A stretch of 16,767 nucleotides of DNA from IMG/VR virus record IMGVR_UViG_2877263951_000002. One strand, 5' to 3'. Within the stretch, counting starts at the first letter, position 1. The number at the start of each line of letters is the position of its first letter. Positions 2,576 through 15,384 of the stretch are shown piece after piece. The notes below the pieces were generated by a model. That model made no database searches. It saw only the letters and a program-made list of their open reading frames with translations, and had not been told where the DNA came from. Source of the DNA: a virus. Lineage: Duplodnaviria > Heunggongvirae > Uroviricota > Caudoviricetes. Made by a program: the position numbers and the translations under genes.

Positions 2576-2917
2576 TCACCCACTGTGGTATATGCGTTGT
2601 GGTCTGCCAACTTTGCCGTGAACAATTTCAGCAATAATCAGATGGCGGCTGGCGCAATATTCAAGATAACGCCTGGCAGTGGTGCGGCTGATGGTCAGTG
2701 CCTGCGCCACCGTTTCTGCCGTATGTTGCACACCAGGCTCTTTAAACAGTTTTCGCACCGCGTTTAGCGTCAAGGGGTCAATGCCGGTCGGCAGTTCGTC
2801 TTTGGGTTCACCGCGAGCATAGGCATTAAACATCTCATCAATTTGCTTCTGGCTGGCGCTATCAATACTTTCCAGCATATGTTTACGCTGGCGGAAACGG
2901 GTTAGCGTTTGCCCCAG
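2576..2917 (-). pseudogene. dpiA: 3' half of response regulator gene dpiA (citB), interrupted by Mu-type insertion
   Basis: Minus-strand frame open from 2917 to stop TGA 2576-2578 (113 codons: LGQTLTRFRQRKHMLESIDSASQKQIDEMF...RRYLEYCASRHLIIAEIVHGKVGRPQRIYHSG), recalled as the C-terminal DNA-binding half of DpiA. The frame closes 3-4 codons into the Mu-type end (stop at 2927-2929). N-terminal receiver half is not in the window. Confidence 0.8.
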
Positions 2918-3088
2918 TGTATTGATTCACTTGAAGTACGAAAAAACCGGGAGAACATTGGATTATTCGGGATCTGATGGGATTAGATTTGGTGGGGCTT
3001 GCAAGCCTGTAGTACAAATTTTAGGCGTTAACCAATGAAACGCGAAAGATAGTAAAAAATTGCTTTTGTTTCATTGAAAAAACGAAAA
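2918..3088 (+). other. Mu-type attL with transposase end-binding sites (L1 2923-2944; L3-like 3067-3088)
   Basis: 2923-2944 TGATTCACTTGAAGTACGAAAA and 3067-3088 TGTTTCATTGAAAAAACGAAAA both fit the MuA end-site consensus TGNTTCAYTNNAARYRCGAAAA; 3036-3049 contains an ACGCGAAAG half-site-like motif. Confidence 0.7.
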
Positions 3089-3254
3089 ACAAAAACACTA
3101 TAAATCATTTCAATCATAGCTTCAAAAAACGTTCAAAACCGATAACAACCAGGCTGTCACCAAATGACTCATATCACAAATCAGCTCATGCCGTTTAGGT
3201 ATGTTACATGTGTGATTATGTGAGGTGAAGTATGTTTTAGCTGGCTCATGGTTG

Positions 3255-3764
3255 TTATACGGCTTTTTTCGCATCTTGTGGTTCCAACAAAGGAGCTACA
3301 GGCTCTTCCTGTTTATGAACACCATACATTGACAAAATCTCTTGGCGAGTTTCTGGAGGTAATTTATGCAGCGCCAAAGCTGTTTGTAGTGTTTGGCGAT
3401 CAATACCCAGCGTTGCCAATAGGGTGTCAACGGAGATGGAGGGGCGTTCTTGCATTAATCCGGAAAGCCCATATTTAGCCATGTTTAGCTCTATCTCTCG
3501 GACTTCATTTTCTCCTAGTTTATTGATTAACAGGGAGAACATTTTCAATGTATCAGCATTCATTTCTTCGATAGCAATTTTTTGCATAGCCGGTATTGCC
3601 GGGATATATTCAACCCCAGGCCCGCGACGCCCTTCTTGTGAACGCTTCGGCCATCCTTCTTTCTTTGCTCGTTTATGCACCCCCTGTATTGTCCCTGGCA
3701 TTCCATCCAGTTCAGTAATTTGTTTGGGTGTCATCCACTGGTTTATCTCATTTGCGCTTTTCAT
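3255..3764 (-). CDS. c: Mu/D108-type repressor (Repc-like)
   Basis: ATG 3762-3764, stop TAA 3255-3257, 169 aa. The C-terminal region (...RQEILSMYGVHKQEEPVAPLLEPQDAKKAV) closely resembles the Mu repressor C-terminus (...KEILSKYGIHEQES...KKAV) and the N-terminus has the MPG..GVH.RA...GW.KR winged-helix motif shared with MuA and Mu Repc. Divergent from Mu in detail, so D108-like by inference. Confidence 0.8.
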   Translation of the reverse strand: MKSANEINQWMTPKQITELDGMPGTIQGVHKRAKKEGWPKRSQEGRRGPGVEYIPAIPAMQKIAIEEMNADTLKMFSLLINKLGENEVREIELNMAKYGLSGLMQERPSISVDTLLATLGIDRQTLQTALALHKLPPETRQEILSMYGVHKQEEPVAPLLEPQDAKKAV

Positions 3765-3917
3765 AAACTAAGTTTACCAGATTTATCTATATAAAAATCA
3801 ATGGATTACAAAATAAACCACATTAACTGATATAAACCAGTTTTGTTTATTTGGTAATGTATAAAACAGATAATCAAGACGAATTATTTGTTTTGGTAAC
3901 CCTTTATCATACGCAAT
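3765..3917. promoter_or_regulatory. early operator/promoter region between divergent c and ner (expected Pe/Pc and repressor operators)
   Basis: 153-bp AT-rich spacer between divergently transcribed repressor and ner, the position of O1-O3, the IHF site and Pe/Pc in Mu. Individual operators were not delimited from sequence alone. Confidence 0.45.
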
Positions 3918-4172
3918 ATGGTTGGTGTGCGAAAGATGAGTAACGATTGGCATCGGGCCGACGTGATTGCGGCCCTCAAAAAAACAGGAACCCCTCTGGC
4001 AAAATTGTCCAGACGTTCAGGTTATTCAACCGGGACGCTTGCAAATGCATTAGTCAGGCCATGGCCTAAAGGTGAACGCATTATTGCTGACGCCTTAAAC
4101 ATGAAACCTGAGGAAATTTGGCCTAGTAGATATCTAAGGGATCACAATGAGAGAGTGGATATCAGCAATTGA
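3918..4172 (+). CDS. ner: Ner-like DNA-binding early regulator
   Basis: ATG 3918 (alternative ATG at 3936), stop TGA 4170-4172. [13 protein letters not shown]...TLANAL...WPKGE.IIA.AL...PE.IWPSRY matches the Mu Ner family along its length. The 3' end overlaps the A start by 26 nt. Confidence 0.75.
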
Positions 4173-5781
4173 ATGCATGGGTTTATCTGGTTTACCTGGT
4201 TCATTAATGGGGGTTCACAAAAGAGCTCAGAGAGAAGGATGGCTCAAGAGAAGAAGAGAAGGAATTAGAGGGGTTGCTTACGAATACCATATATCTTCTC
4301 TTCCTAACATTGCTCGAGCTGAAGTTTTGCTCCAACAAGGAAAATTTAAAACCAGTCAGGGATGTTTTGAAATCGCCCGCCCCACGCTGGAAGCTCATGA
4401 TTATGATCGTGAGGCACTATGGAGCAAATGGGATAAAGCCAGCGATTCCCAGCGCAGCCTGGCTGAAAAATGGTTGCCCTCAATTCAGGCCACAGACGAA
4501 ATGCTGAACCAGGGGATTTCAACGAAAACGGCTTTTGCGACCGTTGCAGGGCATTACCAGGTCAGCGCATCCACTTTGCGGGACAAGTATTACCAGGTAC
4601 AGAAGTTTGCGAAGCCTGACTGGGCGGCTGCACTTGTTGATGGACGTGGAGCATCCCGTCGCAATGTTCACAAAAGTGAATTTGACGAGGATGCCTGGCA
4701 GTTTCTGATTGCAGATTATCTGCGACCGGAAAAACCCGCCTTCCGCAAATGTTATGAGCGTCTGGAACTGGCAGTCCGCGAGCATGGCTGGAGTATTCCC
4801 TCCCGTGCCACGGCCTTTCGCCGGATTCAGCAACTGGACGAGGCAATGGTTGTTGCCTGTCGTGAAGGTGAACATGCACTGATGCATCTGATACCGGCAC
4901 AGCAGCGAACTGTGGAACACCTGGACGCCATGCAGTGGATCAACGGCGACGGTTATCTGCATAACGTCTTTGTACGCTGGTTTAACGGTGATGTGATCCG
5001 TCCGAAAACATGGTTCTGGCAGGATGTGAAAACCCGAAAAATTCTGGGCTGGCGCTGCGATGTGAGCGAGAACATTGATTCAATTCGCCTCTCGTTCATG
5101 GATGTTGTGACTCGCTACAGTATCCCGGAGGATTTTCACATCACCATTGATAACACCCGTGGTGCTGCGAATAAATGGCTGACGGGAGGCGCGCCCAATC
5201 GCTACCGCTTTAAGGTAAAAGAGGACGATCCAAAAGGACTGTTTTTACTGATGGGTGCGAAAATGCACTGGACAAGCGTTGTTGCCGGTAAAGGCTGGGG
5301 CCAGGCAAAACCTGTTGAACGTGCTTTCGGTGTTGGTGGGCTTGAGGAATACGTTGATAAGCATCCGGCACTGGCTGGCGCATATACGGGGCCAAATCCG
5401 CAGGCAAAACCTGATAACTATGGCGACCACGCTGTTGATGCAGAGCTGTTTCTGAAAACCTTTGCCGAAGGTGTGGCGATGTTCAATGCCAGAACAGGCC
5501 GTGAAACAGAAATGTGCGGGGGCAAACTCTCGTTTGATGATGTTTTCGAGCGTGAATACGCCAGAACGATTGTGCGTAAGCCAACCGAAGAACAAAAACG
5601 GATGCTGTTACTGCCTGCCGAGGCGGTGAACGTTTCACGCAAAGGCGAGTTTACGCTTAAAGTTGGCGGCTCCCTTAAAGGCGCGAAAAACGTTTATTAC
5701 AACATGGCATTAATGAATGCCGGAGTGAAAAAAGTTGTGGTCAGATTTGATCCACAGCAGTTACACAGCACGGTTTATTGA
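4147..5781 (+). pseudogene. A: Mu-type transposase A, 3'-truncated (544 of about 663 codons); stop codon supplied by IS600 terminus
   Basis: ATG 4147 with AAGGGA 6-7 nt upstream; protein near-identical to recalled MuA over residues about 60-544 (...[12 protein letters not shown]) and divergent in the first about 60 residues. After codon 544 the sequence becomes the IS600 end (TGA at 5779-5781). Confidence 0.9.
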
Positions 5782-5842
5782 GATAGCCTGAGTTTAACGG
5801 ACACTCCTTCCTGAAATAGAATGGCATCAGAAGGAGCTAATA

Positions 5843-6145
5843 ATGAGCAGAAAAACCCGACGTTACTCTAAAGAGTTCAAAGCCGAAGCTGTCAGAACGG
5901 TTCTTGAAAATCAACTTTCGATCAGTGAAGACGCTTCCCGATTATTCCTTCCTGAAGGCACTTTAGGACAATGGGTTACCGCCGCCAGAAAAGGGCTCGG
6001 TACTCCTGGTTCCCGCACGCTGGCTGAACTGGAATCTGAAATTCTGCAACTGCGTAAGGCGTTAAATGAAGCTCGCCTTGAGCGAGATATATTAAAAAAA
6101 GCAACAGCGTATTTTGCACAGGAGTCGCTGAAAAATACGCGTTAA
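5843..6145 (+). CDS. IS600 OrfA (transposase N-terminal HTH subunit)
   Basis: ATG 5843 with GGAG 8 nt upstream; 100 aa MSRKTRRYSKEFKAEAV...; contains the slippery run at 6094-6100. Confidence 0.85.
   Translation: MSRKTRRYSKEFKAEAVRTVLENQLSISEDASRLFLPEGTLGQWVTAARKGLGTPGSRTLAELESEILQLRKALNEARLERDILKKATAYFAQESLKNTR
6094..6100 (+). other. programmed -1 ribosomal frameshift heptamer A_AAA_AAA(G) of IS600 copy 1
   Basis: Zero-frame codons AAA AAA at 6095-6100 in orfA; the -1 frame is open from 6100 through the orfB ATG at 6181, as expected for OrfAB fusion transposase of IS3-family elements. Confidence 0.6.
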
Positions 6146-6180
6146 TCGAACAATGGCGACAACAATTTCCCATTGAAGCG

Positions 6181-6999
6181 ATGTGTCAGGTATTTGGTGT
6201 ATCCAGGAGCGGTTATTACAACTGGGTACAGCATGAACCCTCAGACAGAAAACAAAGTGATGAACGGCTAAAACTGGAGATTAAGGTGGCACATATCCGC
6301 ACTCGCGAAACATATGGAACCCGGCGGCTCCAGACGGAGCTGGCAGAGAATGGCATCATCGTTGGTCGTGACCGACTGGCATGTCTTCGTAAGGAGCTGA
6401 GGCTACGCTGTAAGCAGAAACGCAAGTTCAGAGCGACTACGAACCCGAACCACAATCTGCCAGTTGCGCCAAATCTGCTGAACCAGACGTTCGCTCCTAC
6501 AGCACCAAATCAGGTCTGGGTGGCGGACCTGACGTATGTTGCCACACAGGAGGGATGGTTGTACCTCGCTGGCATCAAAGATGTTTATACGTGCGAAATT
6601 GTCGGCTACGCCATGGGAGAGCGCATGACAAAAGAGCTGACAGGTAAAGCCCTGTTTATGGCGCTCAGGAGCCAGCGCCCACCTGCCGGGCTAATCCACC
6701 ACTCTGATCGAGGTTCACAGTACTGCGCATACGATTACCGGGTCATACAGGAGCAGTCTGGTCTGAAAACATCAATGTCGCGTAAAGGTAACTGTTACGA
6801 CAACGCTCCGATGGAAAGCTTCTGGGGAACGCTGAAAAATGAGAGCCTGAGCCACTATCGTTTTAATAACCGGGATGAAGCCATCTCAGTAATACGGGAA
6901 TACATTGAGATTTTCTACAATCGTCAGCGTCGTCACTCTCGTCTGGGGAATATCTCCCCGGCAGCCTTCAGGGAAAAATATCATCAGATGGCTGCTTAA
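6181..6999 (+). CDS. IS600 OrfB (DDE catalytic domain; normally expressed as OrfAB fusion)
   Basis: 272-aa ORF in the -1 frame relative to orfA; contains typical IS3-family DDE region (...WVADLTYV..., ...HSDRGSQY..., ...NCYDNAPMESFWGTLK...). Confidence 0.85.
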   Translation: MCQVFGVSRSGYYNWVQHEPSDRKQSDERLKLEIKVAHIRTRETYGTRRLQTELAENGIIVGRDRLACLRKELRLRCKQKRKFRATTNPNHNLPVAPNLLNQTFAPTAPNQVWVADLTYVATQEGWLYLAGIKDVYTCEIVGYAMGERMTKELTGKALFMALRSQRPPAGLIHHSDRGSQYCAYDYRVIQEQSGLKTSMSRKGNCYDNAPMESFWGTLKNESLSHYRFNNRDEAISVIREYIEIFYNRQRRHSRLGNISPAAFREKYHQMAA

Positions 7000-7042
7000 A
7001 AAAAGAACAAATGGTAGTGTCCGCTATTGCCAGTACACCTCA

Positions 7043-7241
7043 ATTCTTTGGCATTTTTTACCTCGTTACGCGCGTCTGTGGCTTTGCCAACGGATACTTC
7101 CGCGTGCGCACGAGTGAACCAGTGCGTGGCAACGTCTTCCTCCACAACATGACGGCCTTTAACAAACTCGCGCCGAGAACCGTCGGGAAGCGTGAGCACA
7201 AACGGGGTATGTACGTGTATTACTGCATCATTTTTTGCCAT
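7043..7241 (-). pseudogene. small phage gene downstream of the major capsid gene, 3'-truncated by IS600 copy 1
   Basis: ATG 7239-7241 with AAGGA 8 nt upstream; 66 phage-encoded codons (MAKNDAVIHVHTPFVLTLPDGSRREFVKGRHVVEEDVATHWFTRAHAEVSVGKATDARNEVKNAKE), then the frame runs into IS600. Function unknown. Confidence 0.4.
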
Positions 7242-7282
7242 CGGGTCATCCTTAATGGCCCCGCCAGGGGGCCATGTGGCTG

Positions 7283-8224
7283 TTAAATGCCATCAACGTA
7301 CGAAATGGTTTCTTTGTACACTGGCTCGACTGCACCCAGCTTGCCGTAGTAAGTGACGATCTGATACAGACCGCGATACTGCACCGGCACGCTCTGAAGC
7401 GGAACCAGCGGGTAGCGGACGTATTTTTTATCGTTGGTGTACGCAACCATGCGATCCTTATTCCCCACACCACGGCCTTTCAGCCATTTAACCGCGCGGA
7501 TATTCAGCGGAACACCGTTCTGGTGATAGCTGATGGTGTTGGTCTGAAGGTTCGTCAACAGGGACTGGTTACCTGCAGATGAAACGATGATGCTGGACAA
7601 CAGAGCAAACTGCTCAGGCGGGATCAGCAAATCACGCGGAACCACAGAGTAACCAGAAGCGGCCCACGCATCAGACAGCACCTGGTTAATGCTTGCGCGG
7701 ATTTCGTCCGGTGTTGAGGTTGCCCACGTTTTGGCAGCGTTGTTGACAGGCACGCCGTCCAGGGTAACAAGGCCTTTCAGGTTTAATGCGGAATCGCCAA
7801 CATATACCTGTTCATCGTTATCCATCTGCCATTTCAGTTGCATACCGTCATACTTCTGCGTATCAATCGGGCGGCCGACCTGCTGAGCAGCCTGCAATTC
7901 TATGACCGTCCAGCCAAGTTCCATCCCCCACAGGTTCAGCGGGTTACCGGATTTGCCGATATCCACGTTCACGCCAGCAATAGCGGTTGAGTCTTTGCCT
8001 ACCCAGTTTTTTCCATTCGGATTTGCGCCAGTACCCGCAGCGGCGAAGCTGGTATTCGTCCAGCTGGAAATGTCATCTGCGATGGAGGCGTCTTCACGCA
8101 GTTGAATATCGCGGCTCCAGGTGTACCCCACCAGTGGCAGGTTCAGCGTCTGGTCGAGTCTCTCCAGCTCCCCGATGAGAAAGGCACCAGAGCTGTCAAC
8201 GGTTGCCTGATCAAAAGTAATCAT
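7283..8224 (-). CDS. phage major capsid protein (DUF2184-like family by recall)
   Basis: ATG 8222-8224 with AAGGAA 7-8 nt upstream, stop TAA 7283-7285, 313 aa; position after scaffold-like and small genes in a head module; sequence recalled as a prophage major capsid family. Family assignment unverified. Confidence 0.65.
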   Translation of the reverse strand: MITFDQATVDSSGAFLIGELERLDQTLNLPLVGYTWSRDIQLREDASIADDISSWTNTSFAAAGTGANPNGKNWVGKDSTAIAGVNVDIGKSGNPLNLWGMELGWTVIELQAAQQVGRPIDTQKYDGMQLKWQMDNDEQVYVGDSALNLKGLVTLDGVPVNNAAKTWATSTPDEIRASINQVLSDAWAASGYSVVPRDLLIPPEQFALLSSIIVSSAGNQSLLTNLQTNTISYHQNGVPLNIRAVKWLKGRGVGNKDRMVAYTNDKKYVRYPLVPLQSVPVQYRGLYQIVTYYGKLGAVEPVYKETISYVDGI

Positions 8225-8368
8225 TCGTCTGTTCCTTAAATCTTCCAGGAAATTTCTGCATTGCCGTCAGCATCACCGGCACCTGTGAATTCAGCGTTGG
8301 TCAGCACCACGTTTTTGCCACTGACTGACGTGGACATGAATCCACCCAGAGGCACTTTGATGGATTCA

Positions 8369-8725
8369 TCAGTGGAGATCGCCTTTTTTGATAGTGCTGG
8401 CATCAAAATCAGAACCGAGATTAACGGTCACGTAGCCACGCTTCATGGCGTCGCCCGGGAAGTTCTTGCCTGTTCCCACCTGGCGAACCATGTCCGGCTG
8501 CGACGTGGTCGGATAAGGGCGCACGTAGATCCCCTTCACCTTGTCTGCGGTATCACCATCTGCCAGCGGCACGAAAAAACCGTCATCATCGTATTTACCA
8601 GCCAGGCCATAGGCAGCGAAGGCGTTATCGGATTTAAGGACCACCGGTTCGACGGTTAAGTCCTGCGGGCGAGAGACAGCCCCGGCAATGCCAACAGGCA
8701 TCCGGTACAGAAATACATTATTCAT
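8369..8725 (-). CDS. small phage head-module protein (possible decoration/structural protein)
   Basis: ATG 8723-8725 with AAGGG upstream, stop TGA 8369-8371, 118 aa; lies between scaffold-like gene and capsid gene. Function inferred only from position. Confidence 0.4.
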   Translation of the reverse strand: MNNVFLYRMPVGIAGAVSRPQDLTVEPVVLKSDNAFAAYGLAGKYDDDGFFVPLADGDTADKVKGIYVRPYPTTSQPDMVRQVGTGKNFPGDAMKRGYVTVNLGSDFDASTIKKGDLH

Positions 8726-8728
8726 TTT

Positions 8729-9172
8729 TTACCCTTTACGGTTTGCCCAGAATTCAGCGTTTTGTTTGTTCAGGGAAGCGATACTGGTCATGCCCATGTT
8801 TAGGCGCTGTGCATCGCCGGTGGTGGCGCGGGTGTTTCGCCCTTTGGCAACCTCAGACACGGCATTAAACGCCATGTCGACCGATTGTTTCGGTAATTTG
8901 CGGATATCCGCATCACCGACTATCTGGCGAACCAGCGTTTTGTCAGCAGAAGCCAGAACCTCGCGTTTGAACGCGGTCGGTTTCATCTTACGGCTCAGAT
9001 CGATACCCGGAACGATAACTTCGGCACGCCAGGCTGAGTCACCAGTAATCGTGGTTTCCTCTTCATCGTCCTCGCCGTCACCGGTCGGATTATCGTCAGG
9101 CTTATTATCGTTATCGCCCGTGGCATTTCTTTCCAGCTTAGCCAGCAGGGCTTTCAGTAATGTTTTGAGGTC
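8729..9172 (-). pseudogene. 3' part of phage scaffold/maturation-like gene interrupted by IS600 copy 2
   Basis: Minus-strand frame is open from the IS600 boundary (9172) to stop TAA 8729-8731 with no upstream start of its own (...DLKTLLKALLAKLERNATGDNDNKPDDNPTGDGEDDEEETTITGDSAWRAEVIVPGIDLSRKMKPTAFKREV...). It continues in phase with the 10437-11216 part across the 3-bp duplication. Confidence 0.6.
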
Positions 9173-9236
9173 TGAGGTAGCCTGAGTTTAACGGACACTC
9201 CTTCCTGAAATAGAATGGCATCAGAAGGAGCTAATA

Positions 9237-9539
9237 ATGAGCAGAAAAACCCAACGTTACTCTAAAGAGTTCAAAGCCGAAGCTGTCAGAACGGTTCTTG
9301 AAAATCAACTTTCGATCAGTGAAGGCGCTTCCCGATTATCTCTTCCTGAAGGCACTTTAGGACAATGGGTTACCGCCGCCAGAAAAGGGCTCGGTACTCC
9401 TGGTTCCCGCACGCTGGCTGAACTGGAATCTGAAATTCTGCAACTGCGTAAGGCGTTAAATGAAGCTCGCCTTGAGCGAGATATATTAAAAAAAGCAACA
9501 GCGTATTTTGCACAGGAGTCGCTGAAAAATACGCGTTAA
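9237..9539 (+). CDS. IS600 OrfA
   Basis: 100 aa; differs from copy 1 OrfA at 3 residues (Q6, G30, S35 versus R, D, F). Confidence 0.85.
   Translation: MSRKTQRYSKEFKAEAVRTVLENQLSISEGASRLSLPEGTLGQWVTAARKGLGTPGSRTLAELESEILQLRKALNEARLERDILKKATAYFAQESLKNTR
9488..9494 (+). other. programmed -1 frameshift heptamer A_AAA_AAA(G) of IS600 copy 2
   Basis: Same position as in copy 1 (offset 3394). Confidence 0.6.
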
Positions 9540-9574
9540 TCGAACAATGGCGACAACAATTTCCTATTGAAGCG

Positions 9575-10393
9575 ATGTGTCAGGTATTTGGTGTATCCAG
9601 GAGCGGTTATTACAACTGGGTACAGCATGAACCCTCAGACAGAAAACAAAGTGATGAGCGGCTAAAACTGGAGATTAAGGTGGCACATATCCGCACTCGC
9701 GAAACATATGGAACCCGGCGGCTCCAGACGGAGCTGGCAGAGAATGGCATCATCGTTGGTCGTGACCGACTGGCACGTCTTCGTAAGGAGCTGAGGCTAC
9801 GCTGTAAGCAGAAACGCAAGTTCAGAGCGACTACGAACCCGAACCACAATCTGCCAGTTGCGCCAAATCTGCTGAACCAGACGTTCGCTCCTACAGCACC
9901 AAATCAGGTCTGGGTGGCGGACCTGACGTATGTTGCCACACAGGAGGGATGGTTGTACCTCGCTGGCATCAAAGATGTTTATACGTGCGAAATTGTCGGC
10001 TACGCCATGGGAGAGCGCATGACAAAAGAGCTGACAGGTAAAGCCCTGTTTATGGCGCTCAGGAGCCAGCGCCCACCTGCCGGGCTAATCCACCACTCTG
10101 ATCGAGGTTCACAGTACTGCGCATACGATTACCGGGTCATACAGGAGCAGTTTGGTCTGAAAACATCAATGTCGCGTAAAGGTAACTGTTACGACAACGC
10201 TCCGATGGAAAGCTTCTGGGGAACGCTGAAAAATGAGAGCCTGAGCCACTATCGTTTTAATAACCGGGATGAAGCCATCTCAGTAATACGGGAATACATT
10301 GAGATTTTCTACAATCGTCAGCGTCGTCACTCTCGTCTGGGGAATATCTCCCCGGCAGCCTTCAGGGAAAAATATCATCAGATGGCTGCTTAA
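9575..10393 (+). CDS. IS600 OrfB
   Basis: 272 aa; differs from copy 1 OrfB at 2 residues (R versus C; F versus S). Confidence 0.85.
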   Translation: MCQVFGVSRSGYYNWVQHEPSDRKQSDERLKLEIKVAHIRTRETYGTRRLQTELAENGIIVGRDRLARLRKELRLRCKQKRKFRATTNPNHNLPVAPNLLNQTFAPTAPNQVWVADLTYVATQEGWLYLAGIKDVYTCEIVGYAMGERMTKELTGKALFMALRSQRPPAGLIHHSDRGSQYCAYDYRVIQEQFGLKTSMSRKGNCYDNAPMESFWGTLKNESLSHYRFNNRDEAISVIREYIEIFYNRQRRHSRLGNISPAAFREKYHQMAA

Positions 10394-10436
10394 AAAAAGA
10401 ACAAATGGTAGTGTCCGCTATTGCCAGTACACCTCA

Positions 10437-11216
10437 GTCATCATCACTGTCGCCGGTTGGATCTCCGCCCATCTCTGGTGCTTTGTCCGGTAGTGGTTGC
10501 TGCGGGGACAGGTTGATGTTGAGATTAACGCCCTGCGGCAAATCCCCCTCATCTCCTGTAACCGATGCGGGAGCCGACTCCACCAGTTCGTTCATGGTGT
10601 CGGCATCTCCTGTCTTGATGGCCGCACGCATGCGGTTCCACCAGTTTTTCTTTTGATTTGCCATTGTGTCTCTGTCTCCAATTGCACAACGATTTCCGGC
10701 TCTGCCTTTAGGGACAAGAGCCACATGGTTTCCGGTAATATCGACCTGCTCGGCTTTACCTGGCTCGGTCTGCTCGTACTCCGCGTCATAGCCGCACGAC
10801 ACTTCGCGCAGGCCATCTTCGATAAGCTGAATGGCGCTTTCGTCTTTGACGATAAGGTCAGCCAGCATCAAATCAGACTGCTCACCCGTCCCGCGCCGGA
10901 CATTCTGGAGGTGCCCGACAGCAAGCACTTTCCAGTTCTCGGGATTTACCAGCCGCACATTCCCGTTTTCATCTTCAGGATGCAGGATCGTGATGCTCAT
11001 CCCTTCGAATGAGGCAAGCGTGGCCGGATGGAATACCTGCTCAGGAGAACGCGTGACGACTATTTCAACGAACTTATCGGGTTTCAGTTTTGGCAGGTCA
11101 TCAGCACCATAGAGCTGCTTACCTGTTCGTCCTATCGGCACGTCTTTGCACAGCAACGAGCCGTCAGCCAGGCGGTATCGGGTTTCCCCGAGCCTGGTCT
11201 CAAAAAAGTATTTCAT
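10437..11216 (-). pseudogene. 5' part of phage scaffold/maturation-like gene (DUF2213-like by recall) interrupted by IS600 copy 2
   Basis: ATG 11214-11216; 260 codons ending ...PTGDSDDD, where the last D codon (GAC) is the target duplication and the stop TGA (10434-10436) is the IS600 terminus. Confidence 0.6.
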
Positions 11217-11219
11217 GGG

Positions 11220-12002
11220 TTATGCTGCCCTTTTCATTGCGAATGGAACGCGAACAAACACGATCTCTTTATAGCAGCGGCAGTTTGGCAGCTCGCCCGC
11301 GTGGCCGGTCATGCCGTCCAAAGTTGGAGGTGAATCCCAGCGGACGAATTTACCTTTCATGTGATCGTGGGAATCTCGGACATCGCCATCATCGGCTGTA
11401 CGCCAAATATAACCATCCGAGCCAATAGCTATCGCTCGGGCCATATCCAGCGCGCCCGTTGCTCTTCCCAGTTCCGTTCGGGCAATCAGATCGGCCCTAG
11501 ACTTAGCAACATCGCCGGTAGATGCAATCTCTTTAGCAAACTGCTCCGCCCGACCACCGGTGACAACAGCCTCTATCGCTTTGTTCTGGATGTCGTACAC
11601 CCTGTCTGCGGCCTCGAGAGGCAGAGATTTGATGTACTTGACCTGTTCGGCGATGATGGATTGCATCACCTGGCCCACAGGAGCGCTTTCCACAAGATTG
11701 CGGAGCTCGCGACTGATGTTCTTGCTGTGTTGCCGCCAAACTTTCTCGTTCTGCCGGGTTAGGTCCGCAGTAAAGTTTTCCGCGACCTTTGTCGCCCAGG
11801 GGGTGATGATTTCACTGTAACGCTCCAGCGCCGCAATAATTTCCGTGATACTGTCATTTGAACCATCGTAGCGACCATTTACGATGTCTCCGACCGCCCT
11901 CGCTATCCTGCGTAGGCTGGTTCGATACCGGATTTCCGCCTGACGGCTCCTGCGGTTCGTCATCAGGTTCGCCGATGCCGGGCGGCGCTTCATCTTCGGC
12001 AT
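11220..12002 (-). CDS. phage head morphogenesis protein (Mu F / SPP1 gp7-like minor head protein)
   Basis: ATG 12000-12002 (alternative ATGs at 11993 and 11963), stop TAA 11220-11222, 260 aa; C-terminal region with ...HAGELPNCRCY... typical of the Mu F-like family; lies directly after the portal gene. Start uncertain; overlaps portal 3' end by up to 149 nt. Confidence 0.65.
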   Translation of the reverse strand: MPKMKRRPASANLMTNRRSRQAEIRYRTSLRRIARAVGDIVNGRYDGSNDSITEIIAALERYSEIITPWATKVAENFTADLTRQNEKVWRQHSKNISRELRNLVESAPVGQVMQSIIAEQVKYIKSLPLEAADRVYDIQNKAIEAVVTGGRAEQFAKEIASTGDVAKSRADLIARTELGRATGALDMARAIAIGSDGYIWRTADDGDVRDSHDHMKGKFVRWDSPPTLDGMTGHAGELPNCRCYKEIVFVRVPFAMKRAA

Positions 12003-13320
12003 TCTCGATGTCCTCGTTGGTAATGGATGCCCCTATGCCGGTTACGTCAGAATTTTCTCGCAAATCAGTCATAGCGGCTTTCAGTGTCATCAGACCATCA
12101 CCCAGCGCCGTACTGATTGCGTTGGTGGTGTTTAACGCCACCGTTGAGCGATCGACATCAGACATTTGCCAGAGCGGGTTAAACTCAAACGTGAAATCGT
12201 CCGGCAGCGGCTTGCCAAGTTCCGAACGATGCATGATGTCCAGTATCCGCCGCACCGGAAGACGTAAACGCCTCTCCTGCAACGAACTGATGCGATCGTA
12301 ATAGTTGGCAAGGTCTGCATCACCGGTAGAAAATCCTTTCGGGGACTGTCCGAACAACCGCACCAGTGGGATACCAACAGCGCCACTAATCTGTTCTGCA
12401 AACTGCGAAAGGATGTCATCCAGACCACTGAAGCTGTACTGATGGGTTTCAAACTTATCCCGCGAGTCCATGAGCGTCATGCCTTCATTACTCTGGAACT
12501 GTCGAATCAGGTCGATATTCTTCAGCAACGCTTCATACGCAGGACCACCAAGTGCGATAAGCTCGCGTAGCTTCTCCACGCTGTAGGTACGCAAATGCGC
12601 CTTGTAGACCAGCTGCGCCGCGCCGACAGTAGCGCTGTCGAACGCGGTAAGACGATCCCAGATACGCTCTACAACCGACATTCCCCATTCGTTCTCGGTC
12701 ATCTTCTGCTGAAATGGCAACGTGACGCCATCAAAGCGAATCAGGCGACTGTGATGAATGCGCCAGGCAGGAATTCCCGTTGCTGTGGTCACCACATCGT
12801 AAAACTCAGGTTTACCCAGGTCCGGCCCCATATCTTTAATGCGGCGGGTCAGTGCCGGGTCGACCATCCAGCGGTCGAGCGGGAGAATCCCCTTAAACTT
12901 GCCCTTACCGATGGTTTCGGGTCGCAGCGGGGTCATTGGTGCCTGCCCCTCAATCATGATGAAACCCACCGCGCCGCCGTAGAGGCGCGACCATTTCAGC
13001 ACGTCATTCAGCGCATCCCAGATTTGCAACTCATCCAGTTGTGATTCGAGAATGCCACGATCTTTTGCATCAATTTCCGAAGTGATGCGAATGCCTTTGC
13101 GGGTCATATCATCCGGGATAGCATCGACTGCTTCGCCGATGATCCAGGATGAACGATAGGACCATTCCACCAGCATGCGGTTACGACTGGTGAAATTAGC
13201 CCGGTAGGTGGATGCTGAGTGCTGGTTAGGTGTCTGCATCCCTACTCGGGCAATAAAATTCTCATAACCATCAGCTGTGGCCTGCACAGTTCGCCGCAGG
13301 GCTTGTTTGTTTCGTGCCAT
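11854..13320 (-). CDS. phage portal protein (DUF1073-like by recall)
   Basis: ATG 13318-13320 overlapping the TerL stop (ATGA), stop TGA 11854-11856, 488 aa with acidic C-terminal tail; position between TerL and head morphogenesis gene. Confidence 0.7.
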   Translation of the reverse strand: MARNKQALRRTVQATADGYENFIARVGMQTPNQHSASTYRANFTSRNRMLVEWSYRSSWIIGEAVDAIPDDMTRKGIRITSEIDAKDRGILESQLDELQIWDALNDVLKWSRLYGGAVGFIMIEGQAPMTPLRPETIGKGKFKGILPLDRWMVDPALTRRIKDMGPDLGKPEFYDVVTTATGIPAWRIHHSRLIRFDGVTLPFQQKMTENEWGMSVVERIWDRLTAFDSATVGAAQLVYKAHLRTYSVEKLRELIALGGPAYEALLKNIDLIRQFQSNEGMTLMDSRDKFETHQYSFSGLDDILSQFAEQISGAVGIPLVRLFGQSPKGFSTGDADLANYYDRISSLQERRLRLPVRRILDIMHRSELGKPLPDDFTFEFNPLWQMSDVDRSTVALNTTNAISTALGDGLMTLKAAMTDLRENSDVTGIGASITNEDIENAEDEAPPGIGEPDDEPQEPSGGNPVSNQPTQDSEGGRRHRKWSLRWFK

Positions 13321-14053: not shown

Positions 14054-14064
14054 TGGATTTGCCC

Positions 14065-14970
14065 CTATATTTCCAGACATCTGTTATCACTTAACCCATT
14101 ACAAGCCCGCTGCCGCAGATATTCCCGTGGCGAGCGATAACCCAGCGCACTATGCGGATGCCATTCGTTATAATGCTCGAACGCCTCTGCAAGGTTCTTT
14201 GCTGCCGTTAACCCGTCTGGTTTGGGCATGATACTGATGTAGTCACGCTTTATCGTTTTCACGAAGCTCTATGCTATTCCGTTACTCTCCGGACTCCGCA
14301 CCGCCGTGTTCTTCGGTTCAAGTCCCAACATCCGGGCGAACTGGCGTGTTTCATTAGCCCGGTAGCATGAACCATTATCCGTCAGCCACTCCACTGGAGA
14401 CGACGGAAGATCGTTGCCGAAGCGGCGTTCCACCGCTCCCAGCATGACGTCCTGTACTGTTTCACTGTTGAAGCCGCCGGTAGTCACCGCCCAGTGCAGT
14501 GCCTCACGATCACAGCAGTCCAGCGCGAACGTGACACGCAGTCTCTCTCCGTTATCACAGCAGAACTCGAACCCGTCAGAGCACCATCGCTGATTGCTTT
14601 CTTTCACGGCCACTCTGCCTGTATGTGCCCGTTTCGATGGCGGTACAGCAGGTTTTCGCTCAAGCAACAGCGCATTCTGGCGCATGAGCCGGTAAACACG
14701 TTTGGCATTGATCGCAGGCATACCATCAAGTTCTGCCTGTCTGCGAAGCAGCGCCCATACCCGACGATAACCATACGTGGGCAGCTCTCCGATAACATGG
14801 TGTATACGGAGAAGCACATCCGTATCATCAGTGTGACGACTGCGGCGGCCATCCATCCAGTCATCGGTTCGTCTGAGAATGACGTGCAACTGCGCACGCG
14901 ACACCCGGAGACAACGGCTGACTAAGCTTACTCCCCATCCCCGGGCAATAAGGGCGCGTGCGCTATCCAC
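14065..14970 (-). pseudogene. insD: IS2 insD (OrfB, DDE transposase domain) with in-frame TAG at 14269-14271
   Basis: GTG at 14968-14970 (the -1 frame entry point), frame open to TAG at 14269-14271 (233 codons), then the same frame continues for 67 more InsD-like codons to TAG at 14065-14067 (...[19 protein letters not shown]...NRCLEI). Recalled canonical InsD has Glu at this codon. Confidence 0.8.
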
Positions 14971-15293
14971 TTTTTTGCCCGTCCATATTCAACGGCTTCT
15001 TTGAGGAGTTCATTTTCCATCGTTTTCTTGCCGAGCAGGCGCTGGAGTTCTTTAATCTGCTTCATGGCGGCAGCAAGTTCAGAGGCAGGAACAACCTGTT
15101 CTCCGGCGGCCACAGCAGTAAGACTTCCTTCCTGGTATTGCTTACGCCAGAGAAATAACTGGCTGGCTGCTACACCATGTTGCCGGGCAACGAGGGAGAC
15201 CGTCATCCCCGGTTCAAAGCTCTGCTGAACAATTGCGATCTTTTCCTGTGTGGTACGCCGTCTGCGTTTCTCCGGCCCTAAGACATCAATCAT
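14928..15293 (-). CDS. insC: IS2 InsC (OrfA, HTH subunit)
   Basis: ATG 15291-15293, stop TAA 14928-14930, 121 aa [26 protein letters not shown]...; the 15 extra N-terminal residues in the ORF track are not used. Slippery heptamer A_AAA_AAG on minus strand at 14970-14976. Confidence 0.88.
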
Positions 15294-15384
15294 CTGTTCT
15301 CCAATGACTAGTCTAAAAACTAGTATTAAGACTATCACTTAAATAAGTGATACTGGTTGTCTGGAGATTCAGGGGGCCAGTCTA

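Follow-up and report, generated by a model that had tools for sequence, protein, structure and literature searches.

The viral DNA record IMGVR_UViG_2877263951_000002 (Caudoviricetes; 16,767 nucleotides, hereafter the window) contains, at positions 9173..10436, the second of two copies of the insertion sequence (IS) IS600, with minus-strand open reading frames (ORFs) on both of its sides. The locus raises the question of whether this copy 2 is a simple insertion into a single gene and, if so, what the intact gene encoded. Region 8600-11400 of the window was read and all of its ORFs were listed. The best explanation, which we hold with high confidence, is one transposition of IS600 into a GTC target of a head protease/scaffold gene of family PF09979, with duplication of the target, the intact protein being a protease-scaffold. 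The host element is the head module of a defective SEN34/Brunovirus-like prophage of Shigella flexneri.

Over its full length, IS600 copy 2 (IS3 family, IS3 group; 1264 bp, plus strand) is 99.7% identical to elements that complete Escherichia coli genomes carry under the annotation "IS3-like element IS600 family transposase". Its left end at 9173 reads TGAGGTAGCC and its right end at 10436 reads ACACCTCA; in a longer reading the element starts with TGAGGTAGCCTGAG... and finishes with ...CAGTACACCTCA. The terminal inverted repeats are imperfect (TGAGGTAGCCTGAGTTTAACGGACAC / TGAGGTGTACTGGCAATAGCGGACAC), with the ends 5'-TG...CA-3'. Two plus-strand ORFs were listed, orfA (9237-9539) and orfB (9575-10393), and the HTH_Tnp_1 and rve families were found on the same two transposase genes at an identical locus (L006). 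A run of A7G at 9488-9495 is a candidate slippery motif for -1 frameshifting. The trinucleotide GTC flanks the element on the left (9170..9172) and on the right (10437..10439), as the initial annotation had stated, and represents a 3-bp target-site duplication, since empty sites hold a single GTC. Copy 2 agrees with IS600 in length, identity, TG...CA repeats, the arrangement of orfA and orfB with the A7G run, and the 3-bp duplication.

The interrupted gene lies on the minus strand. Its 5' fragment (10434..11216) comprises codons 1-260 followed by a TGA stop, which is the complement of 10434-10436, the final 3 bp of the IS, and the right-hand GTC is codon Asp260. The 3' fragment (8729..9169) comprises codons 261-406 and the native stop (8729-8731); this stretch of 146 codons lacks its own start and encodes a predicted helix (residues 261-273), an acidic linker and a helical C-terminal domain (residues 300-406). 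In silico excision of the IS and one GTC fuses 11216-10437 to 9169-8729 in phase and yields 406 amino acids and a stop (407 codons), with Asp260 (10437-10439) next to Leu261 (9167-9169) and the C-terminal side of the junction reading LKTLLKALLAKLERNATGDND. The initial annotation had described the same continuous ORF of about 407 codons, the same junction and the same IS-derived stop. By exact look-up, the reconstruction is P0392, a 406-amino-acid uninterrupted protein of Shigella flexneri present on at least 1000 contigs (0 differences, 100% identity), while the 260-amino-acid fragment is itself a public S. flexneri protein found on 91 contigs. Full-length homologues of the 406-amino-acid protein occur in phages and among 6186 representatives, and those with identity as low as 35% span residues 1-405 as a single chain. 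The one-gene reading had been made to depend on such homologues, and P0392, the phage proteins and PHROG 1961, which aligns end to end (E 6e-196), supply them.

Uninterrupted alleles, which the initial annotation had proposed to look for in related prophages, were found in E. coli FDAARGOS_944 and in five chromosome records encoding the Shigella protein. Of 5426 complete E. coli genomes, 339 matched a 1595-nt query spanning the excised junction, and 334 of these cover at least 80% of the query in one place; the best match was FDAARGOS_944 (99.8% identity), whose site reads TTTTGAG GTC ATCATC, with one GTC. The five chromosome records encoding P0392 (L010-L014) align without gaps to positions 16767-10437 and 9172-2729 of the window, and the two alignments overlap by exactly 3 bp, GTC. 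These records carry the IS2-like element, IS600 copy 1 and the Mu junction described below as well as, given the gapless alignments, the two small deletions; only copy 2 is missing. Neither a stop nor a start occurs at the junction in the empty sites. The chance expectation of a 3-bp flank match alone is 1/64, and a chance match of GTC is excluded because the empty sites hold it once. Since the prophages of these five records have one GTC and share all the other lesions, copy 2 is a recent, clean simple transposition into an already defective prophage, which bears out the simple insertion proposed at the outset. In the collection index, the intact allele accounts for 3274 blocks and the interrupted allele for 107. 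The sequence CP026765.1 is 100% identical to the window across 8783 bp. A 40-nt search over the left IS junction gave no match in a genome-contig collection holding one genome per species, whose representative of this species evidently lacks copy 2.

The reconstructed protein belongs to the Pfam family PF09979 (DUF2213, renamed Pa193_gp24 in a newer Pfam release), which matches residues 16-181 with 141.9 bits against a gathering cut-off of 22 (E 2.5e-41). Matches weaker than PHROG 1961 were PHROGs labelled "head maturation protease", and NCBIfam contained no family for the protein. The order of genes in the head module is (i) portal (PF06381), (ii) Mu-F-like head morphogenesis, (iii) DUF2213, (iv) cement (PF22758/PF23982) and (v) major capsid (PF09950), and the same order was found in Salmonella phage SEN34 (Brunovirus), Escherichia phage vB_EcoM-606R2 and Pseudomonas phage E217. 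The gene thus lies near the major capsid gene, a position typical of scaffolding proteins of the Pa193 gp24 type. The DUF2213 protein of E217, gp23, has approximately 97% full-length identity to Pa193 gp24, which is the "scaffolding protein" of PDB entry 9B40. The labels of the family are inconsistent: "DUF2213", "scaffolding protein" and, for E217 gp23 in RefSeq, "head maturation protease" are all in use.

The relationship to Pa193 gp24 is a distant one. Searched with phmmer, the reconstructed protein itself matched no PDB sequence, and a profile (A2) built from 54 homologues of its own clade, with no Pbunavirus sequences, matched 9B40_G ("gp24 Scaffolding protein") with E 9.4e-10 in the N-terminal domain. 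Residues 286-326 of Pa193 gp24 have been modelled as a helix-turn-helix pentamer below the five-fold vertex of the capsid (PMC11456595). The predicted helix 259-273 of the present protein (DLKTLLKALLAKLE) pairs weakly with the gp23/gp24 helix ELISQVKAILARLE (BLASTP E 0.17), and both helices align in profile A1, which includes Pbunavirus-clade homologues of Pa193 gp24. The proteins share PF09979, a location of the gene ahead of those for cement and major capsid protein, and a layout of N-terminal domain, acidic linker, amphipathic helix and C-terminal helical region; they differ in length (478 amino acids in Pa193 gp24 versus 406 here) and are only about 20% identical.

An AlphaFold2 model based on 64 diverse homologues reached a mean predicted local distance difference test (pLDDT) score of 82. 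Blocks of residues 11-170 scored 94-98 (74 for residues 1-10 and 89 for 171-180), a helix was predicted at 259-273, and a helical C-terminal domain at 300-375 scored 95-97, whereas the linkers 224-258 and 274-299 were mostly of low confidence; 22 Asp/Glu fall within the 80 residues 221-300. When the model was compared by Foldseek with PDB, nothing significant was found; against BFVD, DUF2213 proteins were followed by HK97-type and T4-type prohead proteases and by protease-capsid fusions. Judged by this model, amino acids 1-181 (10674..11216, minus strand) have the assemblin/gp21 fold known from the capsid maturation proteases T4 gp21, HK97 gp4 and herpesvirus assemblin, and form a prohead-protease-like domain. 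Three of its residues, His79 (10980-10982), Ser140 (10797-10799) and His164 (10725-10727), are invariant in the 64 homologues, which are 20-59% identical to the query with a mean column identity of 28%. They lie within the motifs LHP, VSCGY and GNHVALV, respectively, for which the T4 gp21 family has the invariants LNH85P, GVS140SRG and GVD168. The spacings of 61 and 24 residues, like the order of the residues, fit both the T4-type and the herpesvirus enzymes.

Herpesvirus assemblins use a Ser/His/His triad. The T4-type enzymes have been reported as His/Ser/Asp (PMC5694885), so that the third conserved residue of the present protein, His, is herpesvirus-like, in contrast to the Asp of the T4-type enzymes. 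No sequence or profile similarity to T4 gp21 or herpesvirus assemblin (MEROPS clan SH) is detectable: hhalign gave no alignment between the DUF2213 profile and that of the T4 gp21 family, and when the 64 aligned homologues were all scanned with Pfam at E<=1, no protease family was matched. A further difference is that the T4 scaffold, gp22, is separately encoded, whereas here the protease domain and a scaffold-like C-terminal half form one protein. Literature searches for experiments on DUF2213 proteases turned up annotation mentions, the Pa193 structure and a report of an "essential domain" in Burkholderia, but no experimental account of proteolysis of scaffold or capsid proteins.

The protease-like domain is closed by an invariant Asp181, and in 62 of the 64 homologues a Met follows within 15 residues of it, against a background of 23% among equally sized windows. 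The corresponding residue here is Met185 (10662..10664, minus strand), preceded by attGGAGAcagagacaca, and a Lys/Arg-rich segment follows the conserved Met. A Shine-Dalgarno-like GGAG stands before Met185 with an 11-nt spacer, and E217 has GAGG before Met195 with an 8-nt spacer. The conserved Met suggests, from sequence, that a scaffold-only product may be made from an internal start. Such a nested scaffold product, initiated within the protease gene, is known from lambda (C/Nu3) and Mu (I/Z), and T4 gene 21 likewise carries an annotated internal start. The present protein resembles lambda C/Nu3, Mu I/Z and P2 gpO in combining an N-terminal protease and a C-terminal scaffold in one frame, and lambda C/Nu3 and Mu I/Z also in that the Met behind the protease domain is placed where an internal start, here a putative one, could lie. 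It is unlike lambda C, an S49/ClpP-like protease, so that at least there the folds and families of the proteases differ.

Several points weigh against reading the gene product as a protease fused to a scaffold and accompanied by a nested scaffold-only form. The 11-nt spacer before Met185 is long for a Shine-Dalgarno-like motif; the C-terminal half resembles that of Pa193 gp24 weakly, at the BLASTP value already given, and not significantly with the independent profile; and any correspondence of H79/S140/H164 with catalytic residues in gp21 or assemblin is putative, the hhalign comparison having yielded no alignment. The strongest competing view, in keeping with the "Pa193 gp24 scaffolding protein" label of PDB and Pfam, is that the intact protein was purely a scaffold whose N-terminal domain derived from a protease and is non-catalytic. 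It draws on the sole experimental observation for the family, the helix-turn-helix scaffold-like fragment inside Pa193 capsids (PMC11456595), and on the lack of profile similarity to known protease families. We nevertheless consider it unlikely: His79, Ser140 and His164 remain invariant across 64 sequences despite the low mean column identity, the H-P, V-S-x-x-G and G-N-H motifs parallel those of T4 gp21, no other protease-like genes were seen in the head modules examined, and RefSeq and UniProt call relatives "head maturation protease", albeit by annotation only. The scaffold/maturation assignment of the initial annotation is supported in the form of a protease-scaffold fusion.

For the family as a whole, it is conceivable, at somewhat less than even chances in our estimate, that PF09979 constitutes a distinct lineage, not recognisable by sequence, of assemblin-fold capsid maturation proteases with a herpesvirus-like His-Ser-His triad (H79/S140/H164), fused to a scaffold and accompanied by a nested scaffold-only product. 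If this is true, the "scaffolding protein" label of PDB 9B40 and the "head maturation protease" label of RefSeq are reconciled. The point concerns the protein family and not the IS insertion. For annotators, it would mean that PF09979 proteins can be read as protease-scaffold fusions with an assemblin-fold domain and invariant His/Ser/His. The possible herpes-like triad and the conserved internal Met may be mildly new.

The course of events, with the protease-scaffold fusion as the preferred reading of the gene product, is as follows. A single transposition placed IS600 in a 3-bp GTC of the gene, duplicating the target and splitting the gene after Asp260, as the latest lesion in a prophage that was already inactive. 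In the intact protein, residues 1-181 would be an assemblin-fold serine protease with His79, Ser140 and His164 as candidate catalytic residues on the basis of their conservation, and residues ~185-406 a scaffold and capsid-targeting region composed of the basic segment, acidic linkers, the amphipathic helix 259-273 and the helical C-terminal domain. The protein would co-assemble with the capsid protein in the procapsid via its C-terminal part, and the protease, by analogy, might then digest itself and the scaffold and/or capsid protein. In lambda (C/Nu3), Mu (I/Z) and P2 (gpO), protease and scaffold co-assemble in the procapsid, which is followed by digestion of the protease itself and of the scaffold. 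The insertion leaves the protease-like domain on one side and the helix with the C-terminal domain on the other, and through this separation of protease and scaffold it would abolish function. No phenotype is expected from the insertion because the target gene lies in an already defective prophage.

One may ask whether the 260-amino-acid product, with its complete protease-like domain, was instead kept because it is useful to the host. The ORF is intact on the 91 contigs mentioned above, and in BCAM1066 of Burkholderia cenocepacia the N-terminal DUF2213 part tolerates no transposon insertions and knock-down slows growth (PMC8770471). We regard this as very improbable. The uninterrupted gene is present in most related Shigella genomes, and by the block counts given above the truncated form is recent and in the minority; the late operon around it is wrecked; IS-IS recombination has removed the downstream part in at least one relative, as is typical of neutral decay; and the Burkholderia report has, in our opinion, obvious prophage-related alternatives. 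That study, which used transposon sequencing and CRISPR interference, speaks of DUF2213 as a "putative essential domain" and leaves its phage head-protease/scaffold nature unmentioned (PMC8770471).

A comparable case is the insertion of IS600 into lacZ of Shiga toxin-producing E. coli O121:H19, in which excision mediated by the IS-excision enhancer (IEE) restores the gene (PMC9397093). The element is the same (99.7% identity, 1264 bp), with TG...CA ends, two ORFs and the A7G run, and in both cases the gene is inactivated; the IEE-mediated excision from lacZ is the biological counterpart of the in silico excision performed here. The cases differ in that the gene hit in the window sits in a prophage that was defective beforehand.

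The lesions of the prophage were scored against an intact E. coli prophage (L003). The large terminase gene contains an IS2-like element (14054-15384; 1331 bp) with HTH_Tnp_1 and rve ORFs on the minus strand and a 5-bp duplication, ATTGC, whose site is empty in FDAARGOS_944, and also a 7-bp deletion at approximately 13603/13604, which removed one copy of a CAGCCAC-like direct repeat. A 17-bp deletion at approximately 8376/8377 (minus-strand ORFs 8369-8725 and 8236-8406) causes a frameshift in the cement/decoration gene (PF22758/PF23982) and leaves an ORF of 118 amino acids. IS600 copy 1 (5779-7042) has no target duplication (flanks TAT / ATT). Its right end adjoins the DUF4054/STY1053 region of the head module, and its left end a truncated Mu transposase gene (4147-5781), in which MuA is cut at codon 544 and the frame ends with the first TGA in the IS. 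Since it lacks a target duplication and joins the head module to the truncated MuA, copy 1 is a rearrangement or deletion junction. The transposase gene belongs to a remnant of a phage Mu-type prophage (2918-5781) with an exact Mu left end (TGTATTGATTCACTTGAAGTACG, 2918-2940), a Mu repressor-like gene (3255-3764, minus strand) and a ner-like gene (3918-4172). The genes dcuC and pagP lie beyond the Mu left end, and the Mu element was apparently inserted beside them, in a regulator gene (ORF 2576-2878, minus strand).

Recombination between the two IS600 copies is documented in a relative, L009 (UGYS01000001.1), in which one IS600 (4781-6044) links the 260-amino-acid fragment straight to Mu A, in place of positions 5779-10436 of the window. 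The interval between the direct copies has therefore been lost by homologous recombination, and with it the cement and major capsid genes as well as the 3' fragment. An origin of copy 2 by a local hop from copy 1 was also weighed; the 9 positions at which the two differ speak neither for nor against it. Recombination between two IS600 copies could likewise have been proposed as the source of copy 2 itself, a rearrangement junction like copy 1, which joins unrelated DNA and has no duplication, but copy 2 has a perfect 3-bp duplication and in the isogenic empty site its two flanks are contiguous with exactly one GTC, by which we deem this origin refuted, leaving it a negligible probability. The reading of the two fragments as separate genes for a protease and a scaffold, with the IS between them and a fortuitous in-frame fusion, is almost certainly wrong and likewise refuted, for although some phages encode the two separately (e.g., T4 genes 21 and 22) and the junction falls in a low-complexity linker, the fused ORF is identical to the protein called on at least 1000 contigs, the empty sites have neither stop nor start at the junction, and homologues and PHROG 1961 cover both parts as one chain.

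Four lesions, namely the IS2 in the terminase gene, the 7-bp and 17-bp deletions and the IS600-mediated Mu junction, inactivated the prophage before copy 2 arrived. For the sequence of events we infer that the IS2 insertion, the small deletions and the junction at copy 1 were the earliest, that copy 2 was inserted later, and that copies 1 and 2 then recombined in some strains. The insertion of copy 2 is ordinary IS-driven prophage decay of the kind already known in Shigella. The interrupted allele, the intact allele and the IS-IS deletion derivative are all present in public genomes already, and the window is a clean, fully resolved case of stepwise prophage decay. On the minus strand upstream of the split gene, the Mu-F-like head morphogenesis gene, taken as its longest ORF (11220-12002), shares approximately 150 nt with the 3' end of the portal gene (11854-13320); annotated relatives start the Mu-F-like gene later, with a product of 247 amino acids (176-202 amino acids in phages).

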